Assembly (NCBI GenBank): GCA_007376805.1
Contig: VMGX01000001.1
Coordinates: 1,034-65,033, forward strand
Reading direction: 5' to 3'
Source of the DNA: Parcubacteria group bacterium Athens0714_16
GTDB taxonomy: Bacteria; Patescibacteriota; Minisyncoccia; Phycocordibacterales; 21-14-all-36-13
Length of the DNA: 64,000 nt
Shown here: piece after piece, positions 2,481 through 63,608 of the stretch
Layout of the letters: every line of letters begins with the position of its first letter
How positions within the stretch are numbered: the first letter of the stretch is position 1
Position numbers and translations under genes: made by a program
Notes under the pieces: generated by a model
What the model was told of the DNA's origin: nothing
Databases searched by the model: none
The model's input: the letters and a program-made list of their open reading frames with translations, nothing else

Positions 2481-3153
2481 TTACTTAATTTTGAAGTTTT
2501 TTAGGTATGTTTTTCTGTGTATTTTAGAAATTCCATATTTTTTTATATTTTTAATATGCAAAGCAGTCCCGTATCCCTTATGTTTGTGAAATTCATATTT
2601 TGGATATTTTTTTGATAAATCGCACATAACTTTGTCACGAGAGACTTTTGCAACAATTGATGCCAGAGCAATTACCTTTTCTTTCTCGTCACCTTTTATT
2701 ATTGTTTTTTGATTTAAAAATTTTTCAGGAGCTTTTATTCCTCCGTCTAACAAAACTCTGCATGTTTTAGGGTTGATATTTTCCAAACATTTATTAATTG
2801 CCTTTTGAATTGATTTTGAAATTCCTATTTTATCTATTTCTGAATTACTTACGTAAGCAATTTTATAATCAACAATCCCTTTCTTTTTCAGTTCTTTAAT
2901 TTTCTCAAACCACTCCTCTCTTTTTCCTGACGATAATTGTTTTGAATCCTTAACTCCACTAAAAACAGACATTTTAAAATTTTTTGCATTTATCTGCGCC
3001 TGCCCCGTAGCCAGAGCGTAACTCTGTCATCTGCGTTAATCTGCGATTTATTGGAACAATAAATGCACAAACACAAACAGGTCCAGCCAACGGTCCTCTC
3101 CCAACTTCATCAATTCCAATTAGATATTTTATTTTTCTAGAATTTGTGATCAT
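2481..3153 (-). pseudogene. rnhB: Ribonuclease HII split into two frames by a GC-rich repeat insertion and frameshift
   Basis: The N-terminal fragment from ATG 3151-3153 reads MITNSRKIKYLIGIDEVGRGPLAGPVCVCAFIV (catalytic DEVGRG) and then runs through the CGCAGAT-repeat insert to TAA at 2974-2976. The C-terminal ORF 2481..2972 (GVKDSKQLS...HKHKGYGT) is in the +1 frame. The break lies next to an A6/T4 homopolymer. Confidence 0.7.
2992..3047. repeat. CGCAGAT-repeat-containing GC-rich insert inside rnhB
   Basis: atctgcg occurs three times (2992, 3029, 3040) around gcctgccccgtagccagagcg. Confidence 0.75.
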
Positions 3154-3770: not shown

Positions 3771-6700
3771 ATGAATCCCAAATTTACACATCTCCACACT
3801 CACTCTCATTACAGCTTGCTTAATGCATTACCAAAAATACCGGAACTTGTTTCTGCTACAAAAGAAAAAAATATGAGCGCCGTTGCTCTTACTGATAACG
3901 GAAATCTTTATGGTGCAATTGAATTTTATAAAGAATGTAAAAAAGAAAACATAAAACCAATTATAGGTGTTGATTTTTATGTTGCACTTCGCACACGGCA
4001 CGATAGACAACCAGGGATTGATAGTAAAAGATACAGATTGGTGTTGTTAGCAAAAAATCATGATGGATATAAAAATTTAATAAAATTAGTAAGTGATTCA
4101 CATCTTACTGGTTTCTATTACAAACCAAGAATAGACAAAGAACTAATGAAAAAATATTCTGAAGGACTTATTGCAATAATTCCATCTTTTAGTGGAGAAA
4201 TAATAGAAAAAGTAAAAAACAGTGATTTTGAAACAGCAAAGAAAATTTTAAATGAGTATGAAGAAATTTATGGAAAAGAAAATTTGTTTGTAGAAATTAC
4301 ACATCACCCAGAAATTGACGGACATAATTTTATAACGAAAAAAACAATTGAATTTGCAAAAGACCTGTCCGCCTCTGGCGGAAGTGGAGCAAATTTAGTG
4401 GCATCACATGATGTTTATTATATACACCCAGAAGATAGAGAGGCACGAAATACACTTTTATCTATACAAACAAATCTTGACTTTGGCTCCAATAAACGAC
4501 TAACAAGCGAAGATGAGGACTTTTCTTTTATAGGACAAGAACAGGCAGAAAAATATTTTGCTGAAATTCCCGAAGCACTTGAAAACACACAAAAAATTTC
4601 TAACATGTGTAATTTAGAAATTAGTCTTGGTGGCTGGATCTTCCCTGAGGCAAAATCTACCAACGGATTAAACCATGATGACGAATTGTATAAATTAATA
4701 TACGACGGTTTAATTGAAAGAAAATTGGAAAAAACAGAAGAAGTTTTAAAAAGAATTGAATACGAGTATGGAATAATAAAAAAGAAAGGATATTGTCCAT
4801 ACTTTTTGGTTGTTAGTGATTTATTAAAATTCGCATTAAAAAATAACATCTTTACAAACACCAGGGGTTCTGCTGCTGGCTCACTTGTTTCTTATTTAAT
4901 TGGAATAACAAATATAAATCCTCTTGAATATCAAATTCCATTTGAAAGATTTTTAAATCCCGATAGGCCTTCGCTCCCCGATATAGATATTGATATGGCA
5001 GATAACAGGCGAGATGAAATGGTTCAATATGCAAAAGAAAAATATGGAGAAGACAGAGTCGCACAAATTGGGACATTCGGAACAATGGCAGCACGAGGAG
5101 CAATTCGTGACACAGCACGAGCATTAGGTTATCAATATGAAATCGGAGATAAAATATCAAAACAGATTCCTCTTGGGAAACAAGGTTTCCCAATGACAAT
5201 AGATAGAGCACTGGATGAAAATTCTGATTTGAAAAAAATGTACGCGACAGATAAAGACGTTAAAAAAATTGTAGATATGGCAAGAAAAATTGAAGGATGT
5301 GCAAGACACATTTCCGTTCATGCAGCAGGTATCGTTATCTCTCCAATTCCAGTAACAGAGTTCACACCAATTCAATTTGATCCGAAGGGTGGAAAATTAA
5401 TAACACAATATGATATGTATTCTATAGACCCCGACTATGGTGGTGTAGGACTTTTAAAATTTGATTTTCTTGGTTTAAAAAATCTCTCAATACTCGCAAG
5501 CTCAGTTGATTTAGTAAAAAAAATAAAAGGTGTGGATATTGATATACAAAATATTCAAATTGATGACAAAAAAACATTTGAGATGTTGGCTCGTGGAGAA
5601 ACTATGGGCGTATTTCAAATGGGTAGTGATGGGATGACAAAATATTTAAAAGATTTAAGACCGACCGAAATAAGAGATATAAACGCAATGATTGCTCTTT
5701 ATCGTCCCGGCCCGATGGCTTTTATTCCTGAATATATTAAAAGAAAAAGAAATCCTAAACTTGTAAAATATATTGACGAGAGATTAAGAAAAATTCTTGA
5801 AAAAACTTATGGGATTTTGATTTACCAGGACGATATTCTACTTATAGTCACAGAGCTTGCTGGCTATTCTTGGGCAGAGGCAGATAAATTTAGAAAAGCT
5901 GTTGGGAAAAAAATTCCACAAGAGATGCAAGCGCAAAAAGAAAAGTTCACCAGTGGTTGTATCAAAAACGGGATGAAACCAGATGTTGCAAAACAACTTT
6001 GGGAAATGATTGAAACATTCGCGGCATATGGTTTTAATAAGGCCCATTCTGTAAGTTACGGCAGAGTTACATATCAAACTGCTTACATGAAAGCTAATTT
6101 CCCTGTTATTTATATGTCCGCACTTCTAACCGCAGATGCAGGAGATGTTGAAAAAATTTCCGAAACAATTAACGAATGTAAAAGAATGGGGATTGAAGTT
6201 TTGCCCCCAAACATAAATGAAAGTTTTGGTAATTTTACTGTTATAGAAGAAGACGGAAAAGACAAAATTCGTTTTGGACTTTACAGTATCAAAAACTTTG
6301 GGGAAGGTATCGCTGATAAAATTATTACTACAAGAAAAGAGAGCGGTAGATTTAACTCGCTGGAAGATTTTTTAAATAAAGTAAAAGATAAAAATGTAAA
6401 TAAAAAATCTTTAGAAGCACTCATAAAATGTGGTGCCATGGATGAACTTGGTGAACGAGGACAAATGTTTGAAAATGTAGAAGATTTATTGTTGTATCAT
6501 CGCGAAGGGAAAAAAACAGACGAATCACAGGAGTCGTTGTTTGGTTTGATGGCAGATAGTTCAACAATACCAAAACTAAAACTCAATGAATCAATGCCCG
6601 CAACACAAACTGATAAGCTAACATGGGAAAAGGAACTGCTTGGTTTATACATTTCCGGACACCCACTTGATAAATTCAAAAACCAGCTCGAAAAAAGACA

Positions 6701-19179: not shown

Positions 19180-20466
19180 TTAATATTTTTCACCTTTCAA
19201 ATATTTTCCCAAAAAATCTCTTTTAAATTCAAAAAAAGTATCGTCTAAGATAGATTGTCTCATTTTTTTAACAAGATTAACTATAAAATATAAATTGTGT
19301 ATGGAAGCGAGTGTTGCACCAAGCATTTCTTTTGATCTAAAAAGATGTGATAAATATGCCTTAGTGTAGCTTGCCCCGCCATGGCGGGATGAACATGTGT
19401 AACAATCACAATTTTCATCGAGTTTTGAAAAATCATTTTTATACTTAGCATTTAATATATTTATCTTTCCACTCGTTGTATACATAGTTCCATTTCTAGC
19501 AATTCTTGTTGGTGCAACACAATCAAACGTGTCTATTCCATTTTCAACGCCTATAAATAAATCTATCGGTTCGCCTATACCCAAAAGATGTCTAGATTTT
19601 TCTTCTGGCAAAATTGAATTAATCCAAACAAGTGATTTATCTATGTCATTTTTCTCAAATGAACCACCTATACCAAATCCATTGAAATCCATCGCTCCGA
19701 TTGTTTTTGCACTTTCCTTACGTAGTTTTTCATTATTACCACCTTGAACTATGCCATAAATCGCAGATGGACGCGGATCAGACGCAGATTTACGCAGATC
19801 AAAATTTAATTTTTTATGATGTATGAGACATCTGTCTGCCCAGCGGTGTGTTCTATTCATTGCCTCTTCAAGATATTTTTCAGAGTTGTTTGGAGACGTA
19901 CATTCATCAAACGCAAAAATTATATCCGCACCTATATTATGTTGAATTTCAATTGATTTTTCCGGAGTAAAAAAATGTGGACTCCCATCTATGTGTGATT
20001 TAAATTCGACTCCTTCTTCTTTTATTTTTATACTTCCCTTTTGTAAAAATTCTTCGTTTTTATAAATTTTTTTTGCTAATTCATCTACATCATTTGTTTG
20101 GTTATTTATTTTACTAACATCAGAATCAAAACCAGAACCAAGAGAAAATACTTGAAAACCACCTGAGTCAGTTATTGTCGGCCCGTCCCAATTCATAAAT
20201 TTTCCTAAACCACCGGCAGATTTTACAATTTTATCTCCGGGTTCCAAATATAAATGATAAGTATTGGCCAAAACAACTTCTGCACCTAAATCTTTTACTT
20301 GCTCAGGTGTGAGTGCTTTAACAGTTGCCTTTGTTCCCACAACAGAAAAAGCTGGAGTTTTTATTATTCCATGCGATGTTTTTATTTCGCCAACTCTTCC
20401 TAAATATTCTTTTCCGCCAGAGGCGGATCCGCCTCTGGCGGAAATTCTTTTTTCTATTCTAAACAT
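19180..20466 (-). CDS. tgt: Queuine tRNA-ribosyltransferase, enlarged by three repeat-derived inserts
   Basis: TPAFSVVGTKATVKALTPEQVKDLGAEVVLANTYHLYLEPG, FTDSGGFQVFSL, GIGGSF and CDCYTC zinc site. It is 428 aa, against my recollection of ~375 aa for E. coli Tgt. Confidence 0.9.
   Translation of the reverse strand: MFRIEKRISARGGSASGGKEYLGRVGEIKTSHGIIKTPAFSVVGTKATVKALTPEQVKDLGAEVVLANTYHLYLEPGDKIVKSAGGLGKFMNWDGPTITDSGGFQVFSLGSGFDSDVSKINNQTNDVDELAKKIYKNEEFLQKGSIKIKEEGVEFKSHIDGSPHFFTPEKSIEIQHNIGADIIFAFDECTSPNNSEKYLEEAMNRTHRWADRCLIHHKKLNFDLRKSASDPRPSAIYGIVQGGNNEKLRKESAKTIGAMDFNGFGIGGSFEKNDIDKSLVWINSILPEEKSRHLLGIGEPIDLFIGVENGIDTFDCVAPTRIARNGTMYTTSGKINILNAKYKNDFSKLDENCDCYTCSSRHGGASYTKAYLSHLFRSKEMLGATLASIHNLYFIVNLVKKMRQSILDDTFFEFKRDFLGKYLKGEKY
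19375..19388. repeat. GC palindrome inside the tgt CDS
   Basis: cccgccatggcggg (perfect), encodes RHGGA. Confidence 0.7.
19762..19800. repeat. CGCAGAT 10-nt periodic repeat inside the tgt CDS
   Basis: cgcagatggacgcggatcagacgcagatttacgcagatc. Confidence 0.8.
20413..20442. repeat. Two abutting H4 hairpins inside the tgt CDS
   Basis: tccgccagaggcgga + tccgcctctggcgga, encodes SARGGSASGG. Confidence 0.8.
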
Positions 20467-23099: not shown

Positions 23100-23130
23100 C
23101 CCAGTTAAATATGCTTTGCATTTAACAGGG
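23100..23130. repeat. Minimal family B-like hairpin
   Basis: cccagttaaatatgctttgcatttaacaggg. Confidence 0.5.
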
Positions 23131-37719: not shown

Positions 37720-37762
37720 ACGCAGATATACGCGGATAGCAAACCGCAGATCAATGCAGATA
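37720..37762. repeat. CGCAGAT periodic repeat, intergenic copy upstream of topA
   Basis: acgcagatatacgcggatagcaaaccgcagatcaatgcagata. Confidence 0.75.
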
Positions 37763-37797
37763 TAAAAAATAAAAAAATAATTAACTAATAAATAATA

Positions 37798-37923
37798 TGA
37801 ATCCCGTTAGAGACAGCGGTCACGGGATTAAAAATAAAATTTAAAACAACATGAATTACGGTCGTAATATTATAAAAAATAAAAAGATAGATCGTGGGTT
37901 AACCGCGACCTGTCTCTAACGGG
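37798..37923 (+). mobile_element. Family A-like element with different stem sequence, abutting the topA ATG
   Basis: ATGAATCCCGTTAGAGACAG ... CTGTCTCTAACGGG then ATGAAA of topA. Same boundary logic (ATGAATCCCG ... CGGG|ATGAA). Confidence 0.65.
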
Positions 37924-40107
37924 ATGAAACTTTTAATCGTAGAATCACCAGCAAAATCAAAAACAATTTCAAAGTATCTCAACGATTTACCCGGAGATAC
38001 TGAGTATGTTGTAAAAGCAAGTGTTGGACATATAAGAGATCTACCAAAAAGTAACAAAAAGGCCATCGACATTGAGGCCGGCTTTATTCCTTATTACGAA
38101 ATAACAAAAGGCAAAGAAAAAATAATAAGTGAGTTAAAAAAATTTTCAAAAAAAGCAGACGAAGTTTTGTTGGCGACAGACCCCGACCGCGAGGGTGAAG
38201 CAATCGCGTGGCATATAAAAGAAGTTACCGGTTTAAAAAATCCTAAAAGAATTGTTTTCAACGAAATAACAAAGGAAGCCATTCAAGAAGCGATTAAACG
38301 TCCGCGTGAAATTGATGACGATCTAAGAAAGGCACAAGAAGCCAGAAGGGTTTTAGATCGACTCGTTGGCTATGATTTATCTGGATTAATTTGGAAAAAA
38401 GTAAGATACGGTCTTTCTGCTGGGAGAGTCCAGTCCCCGGCTCTTAGAATTGTAATGGAAAAAGAAAGAGAAATAAGAGCTTTCAAGCCAGAAGATTTTT
38501 GGACAATTACTGCTGATGTTGAAAACAAAGAAAAGTTTACATTAACTTGCGCTGAGGAACCGAGAGATAAAAAAGAGGTAGATAGAATCACCGAAGTCGG
38601 AGAAAAAGGAAAATGGATTGTTGGTGATATAAAAAAAACAGAAAGAAAACAATCCCCGAAAGCTCCATTTATAACTTCAACATTACAACAAACAGCAAGT
38701 AATAGATTGGGATTTTCTCCATCAAAGACAATGGGAGTTGCACAAAAATTATATGAATCGGGTTATATAACATATATGAGAACCGACAGTACTACACTGA
38801 GTTCAACCGCCATTGAACAAATGGAAAAAATAATCAAGAAAAAATATGGTGAAACATATTTTAAATTAAGAATTTATAAAAATAAGAGTAAGGTCGCACA
38901 GGAAGCACATGAAGCAATAAGACCTACAAATTTTAGCCTTGAAAATGCTGGTGCAAATGAAGAACAAAAAAGATTATACAAATTAATTTGGACAAGAACC
39001 GTTTCATCACAAATGGAAGATGCAAAAATATCTAACACAAAAATAATTGCAACAATAAATGATGGTGAAATACCAAATTTCAGTATAAACGGGTCAATCA
39101 TTCTTTTTGATGGATGGATGAAGATAGACAGAGATGATGGAGAAAAAAACAATGAACTACCAGACGTTTCTGTGGGTGAAAAACTAAAACTTCTTAAAAT
39201 AACTCCCGAAGCAAAACAAACACAACCACCCTCAAGATACACCGAAGCTGGCTTAATAAAAGAACTTGAAAAACGAGATATCGGCAGGCCGTCAACCTAC
39301 GCAACAATAATGAAAACTTTAAACGACCGTGGTTATGTTGAGAAAAAAAACAAAACACTTTTCCCCACCGACACTGGTGATGTGGTTAGTTCTTTTATTG
39401 AACAAAATTTTGAAAACTATGTGAGTGATTCTTTTACTGCTGAAATGGAAAATGAGCTTGATGAAATAGCAAACGGAAAAAGAGATTACACAAAAACATT
39501 AAAAGATTTTTATGGGCCATTTAATAAAATAGTTATGTCAAAAGAAAACATAGAAAAAATAACAAATATGGGCGATGCTCCAAGTGAATTTAAGTGCCCA
39601 GAATGTGGGGCTGATATGGTTATAAAATTAAGTAAAAATGGAAAATTTATGAGTTGTGGGAAATTCCCAGAATGTAATGGTGCAAGAACAATCGACGGAG
39701 GAATTATTGATCCACCCAAAGAAACCGGGGAACTTTGCCCTGATTGTAAAACAGGAAAACTGATAGAAAGACACGGCCGTTTTGGAAAATTTATTGCTTG
39801 TTCTAATTATCCAAAATGTAAATTTATAAAAGAAAGTGAAAATAATACTGAAAATCTAAAAAACGACACGGGCGTTGGTTGTCCAATTTGTAAGAAAGGA
39901 ACAATGGTAGAAAAGAAAGGAAAATTTGGAATATTTTATAGTTGTTCAAATTATCCAAAATGTAAGAACGCAATAAAAGCAAAACCAACTGGGGATATTT
40001 GTAAGGAATGCGGTTCTTTAATGATGGAAGGAACAAAAACAATACCGACCCGTTGTAGTAAAAAAGAATGTCCTAATCATAATCCTCATAAGCTGAAAAG
40101 CTCTTAG
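37924..40107 (+). CDS. topA: DNA topoisomerase I with C-terminal zinc ribbons
   Basis: MKLLIVESPAKSKTI Toprim, DPDREGE, active-site region YITYMRTDS, and three CxxC...CxxC ribbons. Confidence 0.95.
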   Translation: MKLLIVESPAKSKTISKYLNDLPGDTEYVVKASVGHIRDLPKSNKKAIDIEAGFIPYYEITKGKEKIISELKKFSKKADEVLLATDPDREGEAIAWHIKEVTGLKNPKRIVFNEITKEAIQEAIKRPREIDDDLRKAQEARRVLDRLVGYDLSGLIWKKVRYGLSAGRVQSPALRIVMEKEREIRAFKPEDFWTITADVENKEKFTLTCAEEPRDKKEVDRITEVGEKGKWIVGDIKKTERKQSPKAPFITSTLQQTASNRLGFSPSKTMGVAQKLYESGYITYMRTDSTTLSSTAIEQMEKIIKKKYGETYFKLRIYKNKSKVAQEAHEAIRPTNFSLENAGANEEQKRLYKLIWTRTVSSQMEDAKISNTKIIATINDGEIPNFSINGSIILFDGWMKIDRDDGEKNNELPDVSVGEKLKLLKITPEAKQTQPPSRYTEAGLIKELEKRDIGRPSTYATIMKTLNDRGYVEKKNKTLFPTDTGDVVSSFIEQNFENYVSDSFTAEMENELDEIANGKRDYTKTLKDFYGPFNKIVMSKENIEKITNMGDAPSEFKCPECGADMVIKLSKNGKFMSCGKFPECNGARTIDGGIIDPPKETGELCPDCKTGKLIERHGRFGKFIACSNYPKCKFIKESENNTENLKNDTGVGCPICKKGTMVEKKGKFGIFYSCSNYPKCKNAIKAKPTGDICKECGSLMMEGTKTIPTRCSKKECPNHNPHKLKSS

Positions 40108-47392: not shown

Positions 47393-47602
47393 TTTGAAAC
47401 TCCTATATTGTTTTTGGTTTGTTATTTTAAAAAACTCAATCTAATGAAAAAGTAATACAAAATGAGAAGCTAGTCAATTATAATTTTAAAAATTATTTTT
47501 TTATAACAAAAATAATCATATTTAGAGCCATTTTTTTAATTATTATTTAATTTATAAAAAACGCGTGTAAAATTTACACGCGTTTTTTATTTGTTTTCAA
47601 AA

Positions 47603-47674
47603 CCCTGTTAAATCCTGCTTCACTCAACATAGACAAAGCAGTAATCCGACCAACTGGCGGATTATTTAACAGGG
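47603..47674. mobile_element. Family B-like short element, copy B2
   Basis: ccctgttaaat ... atttaacaggg termini around two small GC hairpins. Confidence 0.6.
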
Positions 47675-47678
47675 CGAG

Positions 47679-47927
47679 TTATTTAACAAGATAAACAATC
47701 GCCCCCTCCTTGGTTTCTTCAGATAATTTTATAGCGACATCATCCCCTTTCTTCGCAGAATTTACATCCTTATGATCTATTTGCATTGAATCTATGGTTT
47801 CCTCAAACTCTATATCTCCTTTCATAATTTTTATCTTGTCGCCTTTTTTAAGAGAACCATTTAGTTTTATCACGGCAACATTTATCTTATCAAACCAGTG
47901 TGTAATTACACCTATTTCTTTTTCCAT
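47679..47927 (-). CDS. Small beta-barrel protein resembling translation-factor domain II
   Basis: GVITHWFDKINVAVIKL..LKKGDKIKI...KKGDDVAIKL pattern. Confidence 0.4.
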   Translation of the reverse strand: MEKEIGVITHWFDKINVAVIKLNGSLKKGDKIKIMKGDIEFEETIDSMQIDHKDVNSAKKGDDVAIKLSEETKEGAIVYLVK

Positions 47928-61438: not shown

Positions 61439-62776
61439 TTATCGGCTTATGGGCTCTCCAGAAATTTTTGATGTCAAATTTTGTATCTCCATACTTGCTC
61501 TTTTAATAGAATCACTCACTCTAAATCTACTGGAAGTAACATTTTCAATCATATCTTTAAATATTGTGTTTGTCTCCGTAGAACTTGGATCCAACCAAGC
61601 CTTACCAATTATAGCAGAATCATAAAAAACACCCCTGTATGCATCTACCTGTTTTTCAGCAAGCAATGTTCTTTTTACTGGAGGCAAATTAAAATATTTG
61701 CTAAACAATAAAGAAGCATCGTCTCCAATTAAATAGCCGGCCACATTTATAACACTAGTTACATTAGCAGAACTTTTTAAAGCCGCTATGGCATTCATAT
61801 TTGCAAATGTTTTGTTTATTTTACTATTTCTTATTTGTGGTAATTTTGCTACATCAAAATTAAGGTTTGGATTTTTTTGTCTTAACACATTCAACTCGCT
61901 TGAAAAACCAAAATAAAATGCAAGATTACCAGCCAAAAATTCTTTTGAAGAATTACTGATTGATCTATTCCACGTATACATTTCCTTTGATGGATTTGAA
62001 AACTCGGTATAAAATCTAATTGCTGATTCTGTCGCGGGTACAACATTTCCTGTTTTTTCATCCAGCGCACTCTGAACTTTATTGTTAATATTTCTTGTTG
62101 TTACTAAATTACCGGCTTGCATAATTAATGCAGAAATAATTTCTTTAGCATTGTTAACATTGCTAAATTCACCGAATGCAATTGTTTCTCTCTGTAAATT
62201 TTGTGCATTATCTTTTAGAGTAATTTTTTTGACCATTGAATAAATTTCATCCCAATATACCGGCGGTTTAACAATTCCCGCATTTGATAACATATCTCTA
62301 TTCCAATACATAACCAGTGGGTCAATCGTAATTGGAAATGCTATAACGCCTTCATTGTTTAAAAAAATCTCTGCACCTTCTACAAAACTATCTTTAAAAT
62401 TTCTTTCAGAAAAACTAGAAAATGGAATACTAAATATTTTATTTTCGTATTTTAAAATTTTATCCTGAGAAAGAATAATCGCGTCTGGCCCAACACCTGA
62501 GGCAATGGCCTCTATTAATTGGCTATCAAAATTTTCTTTATCAATTTGTTTGTAGTTTATTTTAAATGGTGTTAAATCACTTGATCCAATTTCATTTGAA
62601 ATTTGATTGAATGTGTTTTTGTCCATTGTACCCCACAAAGATATTTCTGCCGTAATGATGCCCGAGTTTGGTTTTTGTGTCGCAAAGAAAATAACGCCAA
62701 TGACGGCAAAAACTGCGAAAACTGCAATTACTATTGTTTGAAAATTTTTCACCCCGTTAGAGATAGAGAGCCCCAA
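61439..62776 (-). CDS. Membrane-anchored extracellular solute-binding-protein-like protein
   Basis: N-terminal TM anchor, then a ~400-aa periplasmic-binding-protein-like sequence. Assignment is by overall pattern only. Confidence 0.5.
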   Translation of the reverse strand: MGLSISNGVKNFQTIVIAVFAVFAVIGVIFFATQKPNSGIITAEISLWGTMDKNTFNQISNEIGSSDLTPFKINYKQIDKENFDSQLIEAIASGVGPDAIILSQDKILKYENKIFSIPFSSFSERNFKDSFVEGAEIFLNNEGVIAFPITIDPLVMYWNRDMLSNAGIVKPPVYWDEIYSMVKKITLKDNAQNLQRETIAFGEFSNVNNAKEIISALIMQAGNLVTTRNINNKVQSALDEKTGNVVPATESAIRFYTEFSNPSKEMYTWNRSISNSSKEFLAGNLAFYFGFSSELNVLRQKNPNLNFDVAKLPQIRNSKINKTFANMNAIAALKSSANVTSVINVAGYLIGDDASLLFSKYFNLPPVKRTLLAEKQVDAYRGVFYDSAIIGKAWLDPSSTETNTIFKDMIENVTSSRFRVSDSIKRASMEIQNLTSKISGEPISR

Positions 62777-62876
62777 GCTCTCGTTGATTAATTAATAAAT
62801 TGCGACTTTTTAATTTAATTTTATATTTATTCATTATATTTGATAAATTATTACTCTGTGCAATCTCTAGCGGGGT

Positions 62877-63407
62877 TCATTGATTTTTTCTCAAAATAAA
62901 CCCGTAATGATATTCTCCAGCAGAAATCTTTTTTTCAACCAAAAAACCAGCTTCTTCTAAAAGTTTTTTCGCTGTTTCTTCTAATACAATACTTTCTTCT
63001 GAGGGGCCTATACCACCAAAAGAACCACTCCATTCTATAAAAAGTAGTCTTCCTCTTGATTTTATTATTCTAAAAACTTCTTTTAAAAAAGATTTCTTAT
63101 TTTCTACTTGAAAAAAAAGATTTGAAACAATCGCCGCATCGACTGATTCATTCCCCAAACGAGTACCATTTTCCTTTTCTGCATCACCCCAAATTATTTC
63201 TATGTTGAAAATATTGTTTTTTCTGGATTCGTTTTTTATTTTTGACAATAAATCGTTTTGAATATCAATTGCATAAACAACTCCGAGCTCTCCAACTTCC
63301 TTTGCTGCGGCAAAACTATTAAAACCAGAACCGGCACCAATATCAGCCACCTTCATTCCGTGACTTAAATTAAATTGTTTTATGTTGTTCTGTGGATCTA
63401 TAAACAT
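62877..63407 (-). CDS. Class I SAM-dependent methyltransferase
   Basis: Motif I VADIGAGSGFNS, motif II AIDIQ, post-I acidic residue. Confidence 0.75.
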   Translation of the reverse strand: MFIDPQNNIKQFNLSHGMKVADIGAGSGFNSFAAAKEVGELGVVYAIDIQNDLLSKIKNESRKNNIFNIEIIWGDAEKENGTRLGNESVDAAIVSNLFFQVENKKSFLKEVFRIIKSRGRLLFIEWSGSFGGIGPSEESIVLEETAKKLLEEAGFLVEKKISAGEYHYGFILRKNQ

Positions 63408-63555
63408 TTACCCTGTTAAATAAAATTTGAACTTTTTTTCAAATTTTAATTTTAAATTTTTAATTATTAAAAATATGACCATTGTGTTCTCCTGTCTTTC
63501 TTTATTACACTCATAAAAATACCACTTTTTATTTAAAATTATTTAACAGGGTAAA
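63408..63555. mobile_element. Family B element, copy B3, between SD and ATG of the methyltransferase gene
   Basis: tttaccctgttaaataa ... ttatttaacagggtaaa perfect termini. AAGGAG at 63556..63561, ATG at 63405..63407. Confidence 0.75.
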
Positions 63556-63608
63556 CTCCTTAATTATAAACCAAAACAAATCTTTTGGGTTAAAAAGTGG
63601 GGAAAAGA

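Follow-up and report, generated by a model that had tools for sequence, protein, structure and literature searches.

The subject of this study is a 64,000-nucleotide (nt) stretch of contig VMGX01000001.1 (positions 1,034 to 65,033) from Parcubacteria group bacterium Athens0714_16, hereafter the window, and within it a palindromic repeat element that separates an AAGGAG sequence, which resembles a Shine-Dalgarno (SD) sequence, from the ATG of a methyltransferase gene on the minus strand, downstream of gyrA. The inverted repeat is confirmed as real, and its position as meaningful. The explanation we consider best overall, at slightly less than even odds (a probability of roughly 0.45), is that the element is a copy of a dispersed repeat family lying in front of a gene whose ancestor had neither leader nor SD, that its terminal stem clasps the start codon, and that ribosomes would reach this codon by translating a short upstream open reading frame (uORF) inside the element.

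Read along the minus strand, the locus runs from the gyrA stop codon TAA (63611-63609) through TCTTTTCCCCAC and 28 nt to a TATAAT hexamer (63568-63563), a single T and AAGGAG (63561-63556), and continues with TTTACCCTGTTAAATAA (63555-63539), 115 nt, TTATTTAACAGGGTAAA (63423-63407) and TG. The two 17-nt arms are 100% complementary, and the 3' arm ends at 63407 on the A of the methyltransferase ATG (63407-63405), a start codon that is secure because all orthologs begin alike (ATGTTT(A/C)TAGA(C/T)CC or close variants in all those read). The linear separation of AAGGAG and AUG is 148 nt, and the size of the element itself depends on where it is bounded, 149 nt if the 17-nt arms are included in full and 141 nt if the family core CCCTG...CAGGG (63411-63551) sets the limits. 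An earlier note made from the sequence had claimed a perfect 17-bp repeat at this place, and it is present as described. The longest perfect inverted repeats in 30 block-shuffled copies of the 64-kb window reached 13-16 nt, and the 14-mer ACCCTGTTAAATAA, with at most two mismatches, has 10 matches in the window against 1.4 expected, a count attained in 0 of 100 shuffles. Among 53 gene starts in the window, only those of the methyltransferase and topA lie under a perfect long-range stem of at least 16 nt, compared with a maximum of 12 at 300 random positions. The source metagenome-assembled genome (MAG), assigned to the Parcubacteria (Patescibacteria), has about 31% G+C, and the 159 nt around the element match an independent assembly of that organism (L001) at 100% identity.

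The element is very probably one copy of a widespread, oriented family of palindromic repeats resembling miniature inverted-repeat transposable elements (MITEs), here called family B. One genome per species was scanned for CCCTGTTAAAT-N(100-130)-ATTTAACAGGG, which covers the 100-130-nt gap class only, and family-wide copy counts (such as n=122) refer to the matches listed. The inverted arms occur in at least 118 stretches of species-representative genomes, mostly Patescibacteria; the matches listed come mainly from Moranbacteria, Paceibacterota, Nomurabacteria, Saccharibacteria and other Patescibacteria, with some from Desulfobacterales and a few other groups. The window copy has exact family arms at 63411-63421 and 63541-63551. 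A profile of 35 canonical foreign copies (nhmmer) matches it at 63555-63405 on the minus strand (model positions 3-151, E=9.9e-9), compared with E=0.017 in the opposite orientation. Within the window the arm core CCCTGTTAAAT forms four inverted pairs, with gaps of 9, 50, 119 and 127 nt. The other copies named in the earlier note are real, with arms at 37528-37541/37665-37678 and 47602-47615/47662-47675, and the profile matches the 5' part of the former (E=1.7e-4); the mobile-element-like origin proposed there is likewise supported. We also considered whether the interiors of the window copies are homologous sequence, and rejected this: their local alignments were no better than those of shuffles, save for a marginal 4/300. 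Since the interiors are not significantly alike, arms and architecture are what define the family. In Rfam 15, the window and 16 loci yielded only tRNAs and rRNA at the gathering score, the best E-values for the element (1-1.7) falling to unrelated families, and a literature search by exact sequence and topic returned primer coincidences only, with no description of family B. These small Y-shaped palindromic repeats are apparently undescribed.

The canonical form reads aAAATTCA-CCCTGTTAAATAA-[short hairpin P2]-TTAAGATTTGA-[~66 nt]-TCAAATCTTA-TTTAACAGGG-TAA-ATG. At the 3' end the family has (T)TCAAAT(C/T)TTATTTAACAGGG-TAA-ATG, for which the window counterpart is GTTCAAATTTTATTTAACAGGGTAAATG. 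The invariant arms, CCCTGTTAAAT(AA) and (TT)ATTTAACAGGG, form helix P1 and close a three-way junction, and 88 of the 122 listed copies fold into a P1-closed junction with exactly two branches, a short one and a long one of about 85-93 nt, in either position. The window copy is built like L103, L052 and L073, in which P2 is the long arm and P3 a short hairpin; its own P2 helix consists of A-U pairs only, is absent from the minimum free energy fold and is assigned from those copies. No variation is seen in P1 or at the base of P3, whereas compensatory changes affect 13 pairs in P2 and distal P3, and the covariation score is reached in 0 of 500 shuffles, slid controls being far lower. We rejected a strand-specific excess of G-U pairs as proof of structure at the RNA level, since the sense-strand excess is only modest (122 vs 82).

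Where the copies lie is as informative as how they are built. A long open reading frame (ORF) starts within 25 nt of the 3' end of the element in 63 of the 122 listed copies, compared with 9 at the other end, and in 46 of the 122, as in the window copy, the ATG lies exactly 3 nt past CAGGG (CAGGG-TAA-ATG). The genes behind the copies are diverse housekeeping genes, including infB (IF2), frr (RRF), def (PDF), rplI (L9), the gene for L25, those for aminoacyl-tRNA synthetases, pyk, atpF, parB and trxB, besides response regulators and solute-binding proteins. On the other side, 3-61 nt separate the end of the upstream gene from the element, unless that gene terminates within the 5' arm, at the stops TGT-TAA or AAA-TAA; 13 upstream genes in other genomes terminate within that arm as ...HPVK* or ...SPC*. 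Copies preceding orthologous genes of different species are closer to each other than paralogous ones, and their nucleotide identity exceeds that of the adjacent coding sequence (0.90 vs 0.70, 0.88 vs 0.77 and 0.94 vs 0.80). The frequency of CAGGG-TAA-ATG and the conservation of orthologous copies argue that placement directly before an ATG is, judging from the copies compared, the family norm, kept by selection and no accident of the methyltransferase gene. The 20 nt upstream of family copies are about three-fold enriched in -10-like hexamers, and when copies are excised in silico these hexamers land at the modal leaderless distance. A promoter inside the element was considered and found unsupported: the -35-like TTG and -10-like AAAAT have no fixed spacing, and there is no acceptable -10 at the 3' end. 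Two further candidate family properties were rejected: an SD upstream of the stem (SD-like 4-mers precede the 5' arm in 6 of 62 copies, equal to a control window, 10% vs 10%), and either a uORF ending at TAA (6 of 49 copies) or an internal SD plus ATG (5 of 45 copies vs 4.6 in shuffles). As a separate observation on the window, the 82-aa ORF at 47679..47927 ends ...YLVK* on CTTGTTAAATAA (47676-47692, minus strand), a degenerate 5' arm 4 nt before the real arm of a family-B copy.

Orthologous loci indicate what the element was added to. The order gyrA, methyltransferase, solute-binding protein (SBP), pilin holds in all of them, and a TATAAT follows the gyrA stop in every one, at fixed spacing to TCTTTTCCCCAC in the window, L002, L006, L009, L010 and L131, with the box also present in L132 and L134. 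At the same gyrA-methyltransferase junction in two distant orthologs, L131 reads TATAAT-TTAAATAA-ATG and L134 reads TATAAT-ATCTGTAT-ATG, each with 8 nt between box and start. In the closer orthologs L002, L006, L009 and L010, 80-330 nt of hypervariable sequence without an SD lie between TATAAT and ATG. L002 retains the 5' third of the element right after TATAAT, as TTCA-CCCTGTTAAATAATTTTAA followed by 7-mer tandem repeats (profile E=8.9e-6). The orthologous site is thus empty in L131 and L134, holds a remnant in L002 and is intact in the window. From the TATAAT-N8-ATG arrangement of L131 and L134 we infer that the methyltransferase gene was probably leaderless and SD-less ancestrally, with the element now sitting between its -10 box and ATG and making up nearly the whole 5' leader. 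The remnant at the same place in L002 suggests that the insertion predates the split of the window and L002 lineages. Leaderless organization would fit the genome, in which only about 8 of 52 window genes have an SD and many have a TATAAT within a few bases of the ATG; the window TATAAT itself has a poor -35 and was missed by a consensus promoter scan. No SD precedes the methyltransferase start in the seven orthologous loci read. The earlier note had the element inserted into an intact SD-ATG site, a view that the seven SD-less loci and the TATAAT-N8-ATG junctions of L131 and L134 contradict, and the ortholog comparison it proposed finds AAGGAG in none of the seven loci compared. Because AAGGAG is absent from every ortholog, and L002 keeps the element without it (TTAAGTTCA at the stem foot, vs TAAGGAGTTTA in the window, that is TTAAG-TTCA vs TAAG-GAG-TTTA), it is most parsimoniously a later gain in the window lineage, after the insertion.

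Structure predictions place the start codon inside a closed helix. For promoter-derived and read-through transcripts alike, 14 pairs of P1 have predicted probabilities of 0.84-1.00, in line with the earlier note's expectation that the terminal stem forms, for which predicted pair probabilities are about 1.0. The methyltransferase AUG has a predicted unpaired probability of 0.20-0.29, and opening positions -20 to +13 around it would cost 19.2 kcal/mol, compared with 5.0-9.0 kcal/mol for three SD-led control genes. The SD and AUG (63482-63480) of a uORF within the element are predicted to be open (unpaired probabilities of 0.88 and 0.83), at an opening cost of 5.5 kcal/mol over the same interval. 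This uORF begins as AGGAG-N6-AUG, runs for 24 codons through P2, P3 and the 3' arm, and ends at a UAA that abuts the methyltransferase AUG. In the mechanism that we tentatively rank first, the 17-bp terminal stem would form almost quantitatively and clasp the start codon, so that ordinary 30S loading on the AUG would cost about 19 kcal/mol by computation; ribosomes would load instead at the sole open canonical ribosome binding site (RBS) of the leader, AGGAG-N6-AUG (63493-63480), translate the uORF through P2, P3 and the 3' arm while unzipping the stem, terminate at the abutting UAA and re-initiate at the methyltransferase AUG. Such a route would work whichever promoter makes the RNA, and on gyrA read-through transcripts a stem-bridged AAGGAG, which would then be an SD gained at the foot of a stem already present, may add to it.

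Several points weigh against this explanation. All structural figures are predictions, and the conserved TATAAT, with its poor -35 in the window, is the only sign of the promoter. The uORF is known from a single genome (with the same sequence in two assemblies), and the chance of an SD, an ATG and an open frame to TAA, estimated roughly at 0.03-0.5%, applies to a pattern noticed post hoc. Because the combination is absent from other family copies, the uORF with its own SD does not appear to be inherited family sequence; it may be either an adaptation or a coincidence of the window copy. Family copies in front of essential genes have neither a uORF nor an SD at the stem foot, which implies that another family-level route exists, perhaps the sole one for the window copy too. 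Finally, AGGAGTTT at the stem foot matches real RBSs of the genome, which favours a split SD.

That second-ranked explanation, possible but on balance doubtful, holds that P1 sets the 141-nt element aside and presents the ribosome with AAGGAG-UUUA|UAA-AUG, as in genes 38 and 25 of phage T4, where bridging of this kind has a documented precedent (PMC3014915). The near-quantitative prediction of P1 serves it equally well, and with family boundaries the effective spacing would be 7 nt, compared with 7-8 nt for SD-led genes of the genome; AGGAGTTT occurs six times in the window, four of the five other occurrences serving as RBSs 7-8 nt ahead of gene ATGs, and the copy-specific TTTA flank, in place of the family TTCA, both extends the stem and completes AGGAGTTT. 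Whether the AAGGAG reaches the mRNA depends on the promoter: transcription beginning 6-8 nt past the -10 box would start at 63557-63554, possibly leaving AAGGAG, 1 nt downstream of the TATAAT that every orthologous locus conserves, outside the promoter-derived transcript. Read-through transcripts could carry it, since no terminator was found after gyrA, and there its predicted unpaired probability is 0.74. Purine runs at the same place occur in a few other copies (GAGG-TTCA in L012 and L047, AGGG-TTCA in L103). Family-wide, 4-mers resembling an SD do not exceed background ahead of the arm. The orthologs all lack an SD at that place, so none was split; if the arrangement is real, the SD would have evolved at the foot of an existing stem. 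Geometry also tells against it, as known precedents bridge 16-22 nt and not a 141-nt three-way junction, and with all 17 pairs formed the spacing would be 0, so that the outer A-U pairs must open. For the hairpin-bridged SD-AUG gap suggested in the earlier note, the spacing would be workable, and the SD is conserved in neither orthologs nor family. The same note had advised looking for an alternative SD or start within the element; the accessible AGGAG-N6-ATG and its 24-codon uORF are such a site, and they count in part only against the bridge.

The invariance of P1 and the P3 base, combined with covarying distal stems and with orthologous copies that evolve more slowly than coding sequence, could also reflect a function intrinsic to the family that needs neither SD nor uORF. 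Either the P1/P3 helix would be cut by a double-strand-specific or tRNA-processing RNase, giving a very short leader and restoring a leaderless-like state, or a helix 3 nt from the AUG would dock on the ribosome platform and replace the SD duplex. RNase III cleaves Correia-repeat hairpins and processes the lambda N and T7 leaders, many genes in such genomes look leaderless, and the 46 listed copies at exactly -3 of housekeeping starts manage without a foot SD or uORF. Cleavage and docking are nevertheless hypothetical, P1 with its 13-14 bp does not correspond to a tRNA acceptor stem and would need to stack on P3 to make a two-turn RNase III substrate, a ribozyme is unlikely as no unpaired conserved nucleotides lie at the junction, and the modest sense-strand G-U excess offers little; we rank this explanation third and consider it unlikely. 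Ranked last, and quite improbable, is a tolerated selfish insertion that lowers or abolishes translation of a dispensable methyltransferase, with AAGGAG and the uORF both coincidental. Target-site duplications together with an empty site demonstrate mobility in a related (sister) family, the L002 copy is decaying and orthologous leaders are hypervariable, the interiors of the window copies are unrelated, and the AUG is strongly occluded by prediction. Against this, the copy is intact and its stem exceeds the family norm in both length and perfection, the AUG is flanked by, or is the exact end point of, two independent RBS-like features of low probability, the methyltransferase gene is intact, conserved and syntenic, and copies before essential genes cannot be silencing them.

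Table 1. Positions of the methyltransferase leader features and of the related repeat copies in the window.
Feature	Position	Strand	Basis or remark
TATAAT, -10-like box	63563..63568	-	fixed 28-29 nt after TCTTTTCCCCAC
AAGGAG at stem foot, candidate split SD, overlapping the predicted transcription start	63556..63561	-	
P1 5' arm TTTACCCTGTTAAATAA; family core CCCTGTTAAATAA; flank TTTA (family norm TTCA)	63539..63555	-	
Family-B core CCCTG...CAGGG, 141 nt, gene-sense orientation	63411..63551	-	profile match
Putative P2: AAUUUUAAAU (63540-63531) pairing with AUUUAAAAUU (63457-63448), enclosing a 73-nt variable insert	63448..63540	-	by homology (L103, L052, L073)
P3 hairpin AAAAUUUGAA-AAAAAG-UUCAAAUUUU, counterpart of family stem AAGAUUUGA/UCAAAUCUU	63422..63447	-	
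Internal AGGAG, 6 nt before an ATG	63489..63493	-	predicted unpaired probability 0.88
24-codon uORF MVIFLIIKNLKLKFEKKFKFYLTG; stop TAA (63410-63408) abuts the methyltransferase ATG	63408..63482	-	
P1 3' arm TTATTTAACAGGGTAAA; closing base is the A of the start codon	63407..63423	-	
Class I S-adenosylmethionine-dependent methyltransferase gene, 176 aa	62877..63407	-	Pfam
Family-B copy 2, TTCA-CCCTG...CAGGG-TAAA, 240 nt upstream of topA, abutting no start codon	37524..37682	+	
Family-B copy 3, minimal three-way junction (P1 and two short hairpins), just after the stop of the 82-aa ORF 47679..47927	47602..47675	-	
Family-B copy 4, arms only: CCCAGTTAAAT-9 nt-ATTTAACAGGG	23100..23130 (arms 23100-23110/23120-23130)	.	
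Sister-family copy, arms CCCCGCTAGAG / CTCTAACGGGG, between the methyltransferase stop TGA (62879-62877) and the SBP start	62748-62880	-	
Sister-family copy at topA, perfect 16-nt inverted repeat 37801-37816 / 37910-37925	37797-37928	+	direct ATGAA flanks

Family B has the traits of MITEs in its terminal inverted repeats, small size, non-coding content and many copies. A systematic test over boundaries and lengths found no consistent target duplication (best case, 24% of true vs 14% of shuffled pairs), although a few copies have exact 4-bp direct flanks (TCAA, TTGA, TTAA); around the window copy there is only GTTTA...GTTTA, at non-equivalent positions. No autonomous partner with the same ends was found in about 0.9 Mb of fetched loci, where no arm pair encloses a gene, and no cognate transposase was identified; a 1.4-kb arm pair in L087 was dismissed as chance one-mismatch matches within long ORFs. 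A phage-borne element was also rejected (0 and 1 matches in 2.9 million viral contigs of IMG/VR), as was an integron attC site, since the arms GTTAAAT (5' side) and ATTTAAC (3' side) follow the reverse of the RYYYAAC ... GTTRRRY order. The XerD arm of dif, which shares TGTTAAAT, was set aside, there being no XerC arm and no 6-bp spacer.

The sister family, with arms CCC(C)GTTAGAG/CTCTAACGGG(G), shows textbook MITE behaviour and also lands on start codons in the window. At the SBP gene the window reads CA-ATGAA-[CCCCGCTAGAG...CTCTAACGGG]-GTGAA-AAATTTTCAAACAATAG, and ortholog L006 at the same junction reads GT-ATGA-AAAATTTTCAAACAATAG, an uninterrupted 4-nt stop/start overlap. The two form a filled-site/empty-site pair with a 4-5-bp target duplication, which thus regenerates both the stop and the start codon. 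The true SBP start is the GTG at 62752, for which a list of longest ORFs gives a TTG at 62776. At topA, the second of the two ATGAA repeats supplies the ATG and the upstream one opens a 15-codon frame; this element has a fold z-score of -5.4 and a predicted cost of 24 kcal/mol for opening the AUG region. Further sister copies lie in L030 (~715-830), L061 (~4650-4705) and L099 (~4610-4735), with the duplications TTGA, CAAG and ATACAT, so that sister-family duplications span 4-6 bp. For annotation, such elements cause start-codon miscalls, examples being the TTG start of the SBP gene and a 261-aa call in L009 (P0004, 3001-3786). The latter is over-extended: the called start precedes the conserved ATGTTTCTAGATCC start by about 255 nt, and the extension covers a repeat-rich leader with AATCACA tandem repeats between a GC-rich inverted repeat.

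Some family-B copies carry taxonomic labels that should be read with care. On Simkania contig L069 the element interior is the same as on Paceibacterota contig L013, and 'uncultured Gammaproteobacteria' L062 is 96% identical to Patescibacteria L111 over the first 360 nt of a response-regulator coding sequence and 150 nt upstream. Some of the 'Gammaproteobacteria' and 'Bdellovibrionales' MAG labels are doubtful, and spread across phyla should be treated cautiously. Desulfobacterales copies appear native, with GC-rich interiors and one copy on a 5.57-Mb chromosome; in them the inverted repeat extends outward as CCGCAGATTCA ... TGAATCTGCGG. Short (A/C)CGCAGAT repeat clusters in the window (2992-3046, 19761-19799 and 37720-37751) may be linked to this extension. 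Tandem or nested copies occur in L041, L065, L077, L084, L088, L089, L096, L101 and L124, the tandem ones exactly 4 nt apart (TCAA, TGAA, TTCA, TAAA), and L088 has one copy within another at the P3 position, which suggests that the three-way junction can arise by nesting. In L037 (842-987), family-B arms surround a TATAAT box and a complete tRNA gene in place of the usual interior. A subfamily (L015, L022, L025, L038, L053, L099, L107, L117) begins 7-8 nt past a conserved AAGGAG-N(5-8)-GCGACTATAAT, which looks like a promoter starting transcription at the first base of the element.

At the gyrA end of the junction, the block TCTTTTCCCCAC (63597-63608) is conserved at the nucleotide level in L002, L006, L009, L010 and L131, loci with 63-83% protein identity, and a part of the block, CCACTTTTT, is the complement of the element's AAAAAGTGG (63530-63522). 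The gyrA products of L002 and L009 are 1213 aa long and contain an intein (PF14890), those of L006, L010, L131 and L134 are 818-825 aa long without one, and the window gyrA is cut by the window end.

Patescibacteria, also known as the Candidate Phyla Radiation, make up a large share of bacterial diversity, and to our knowledge the start of transcription and translation in them is almost unstudied. A family placed at exactly -3 of housekeeping starts is either a new cis-acting expression module or a mobile element that manages, in an unusual way, to do no harm where a gene is most sensitive. As a speculation to which we attach little probability, family B and its sister could be mobile elements specialised for the start codons of leaderless or SD-less Patescibacteria genes and domesticated as a modular 5' leader, the invariant helix 3 nt from the AUG acting as a surrogate for SD-anti-SD pairing or as an RNA-processing mark that regenerates leaderless mRNAs. 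If true, this would be a new way to specify translation starts in a major bacterial radiation. With two alternative rescue routes in one leader, the native methyltransferase leader offers a compact natural test case.

Among known systems, the split RBSs of T4 genes 38 and 25 come closest to the bridged arrangement, and the figures confirm the precedent named in the earlier note: 22 nt are reduced to 5 in the former and 27 to 11 in the latter (Nivinskas et al., 1999; Malys and Nivinskas, 2009; reviewed in PMC3014915). In both settings a distant SD and an AUG could be restored to a working distance, about 7 nt here, by intervening RNA structure. Unlike the small hairpins that span 22 or 27 nt in T4, the window has a 141-nt three-way junction derived from a repeat element and an SD that the transcript may not include, and neither the orthologs nor the repeat family conserve the arrangement; the T4 sites were tested by mutation, while the window case is known from sequence and predictions.

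As a repeat, family B resembles the Correia elements of Neisseria, the ERIC/IRU sequences of enterobacteria and Rickettsia palindromic elements, which are non-coding, multi-copy, MITE-like elements of about 70-150 bp, co-transcribed with genes and found in 5' untranslated regions and between genes, with presence or absence differing between relatives. It is like them in size, terminal inverted repeats, long-hairpin RNA, genomic placement and presence/absence, with 4-6-bp target duplications in its sister family, and differs in arm sequence and in forming a three-way junction in place of a simple hairpin. Unlike them, it also has a strict orientation to genes, a 3-nt distance to the start and conservation above that of coding sequence, without a consistent target duplication.

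The favoured uORF route has its parallel in termination-reinitiation coupling, known at UGAUG and UAAAUG junctions, and in leader-peptide-dependent unmasking of the ermC type. Shared features are a uORF with an accessible RBS, translation that would melt the structure hiding a start, and a stop that abuts the downstream AUG; unlike known coupling leaders, the 24-codon frame lies inside a repeat element, is restricted to one genome and shows nothing that would suggest a stalling peptide with a regulatory role. For the canonical family-B copies, the leader of E. coli rpsA may be the more instructive comparison, as it combines helices with A/U-rich single strands and initiates efficiently without a canonical SD. 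Unlike family B, it belongs to a single gene and is not a dispersed repeat, and its hairpins do not pair with the start codon; as a structured leader that works independently of an SD, it nonetheless offers a possible analogy for how those copies could support initiation.

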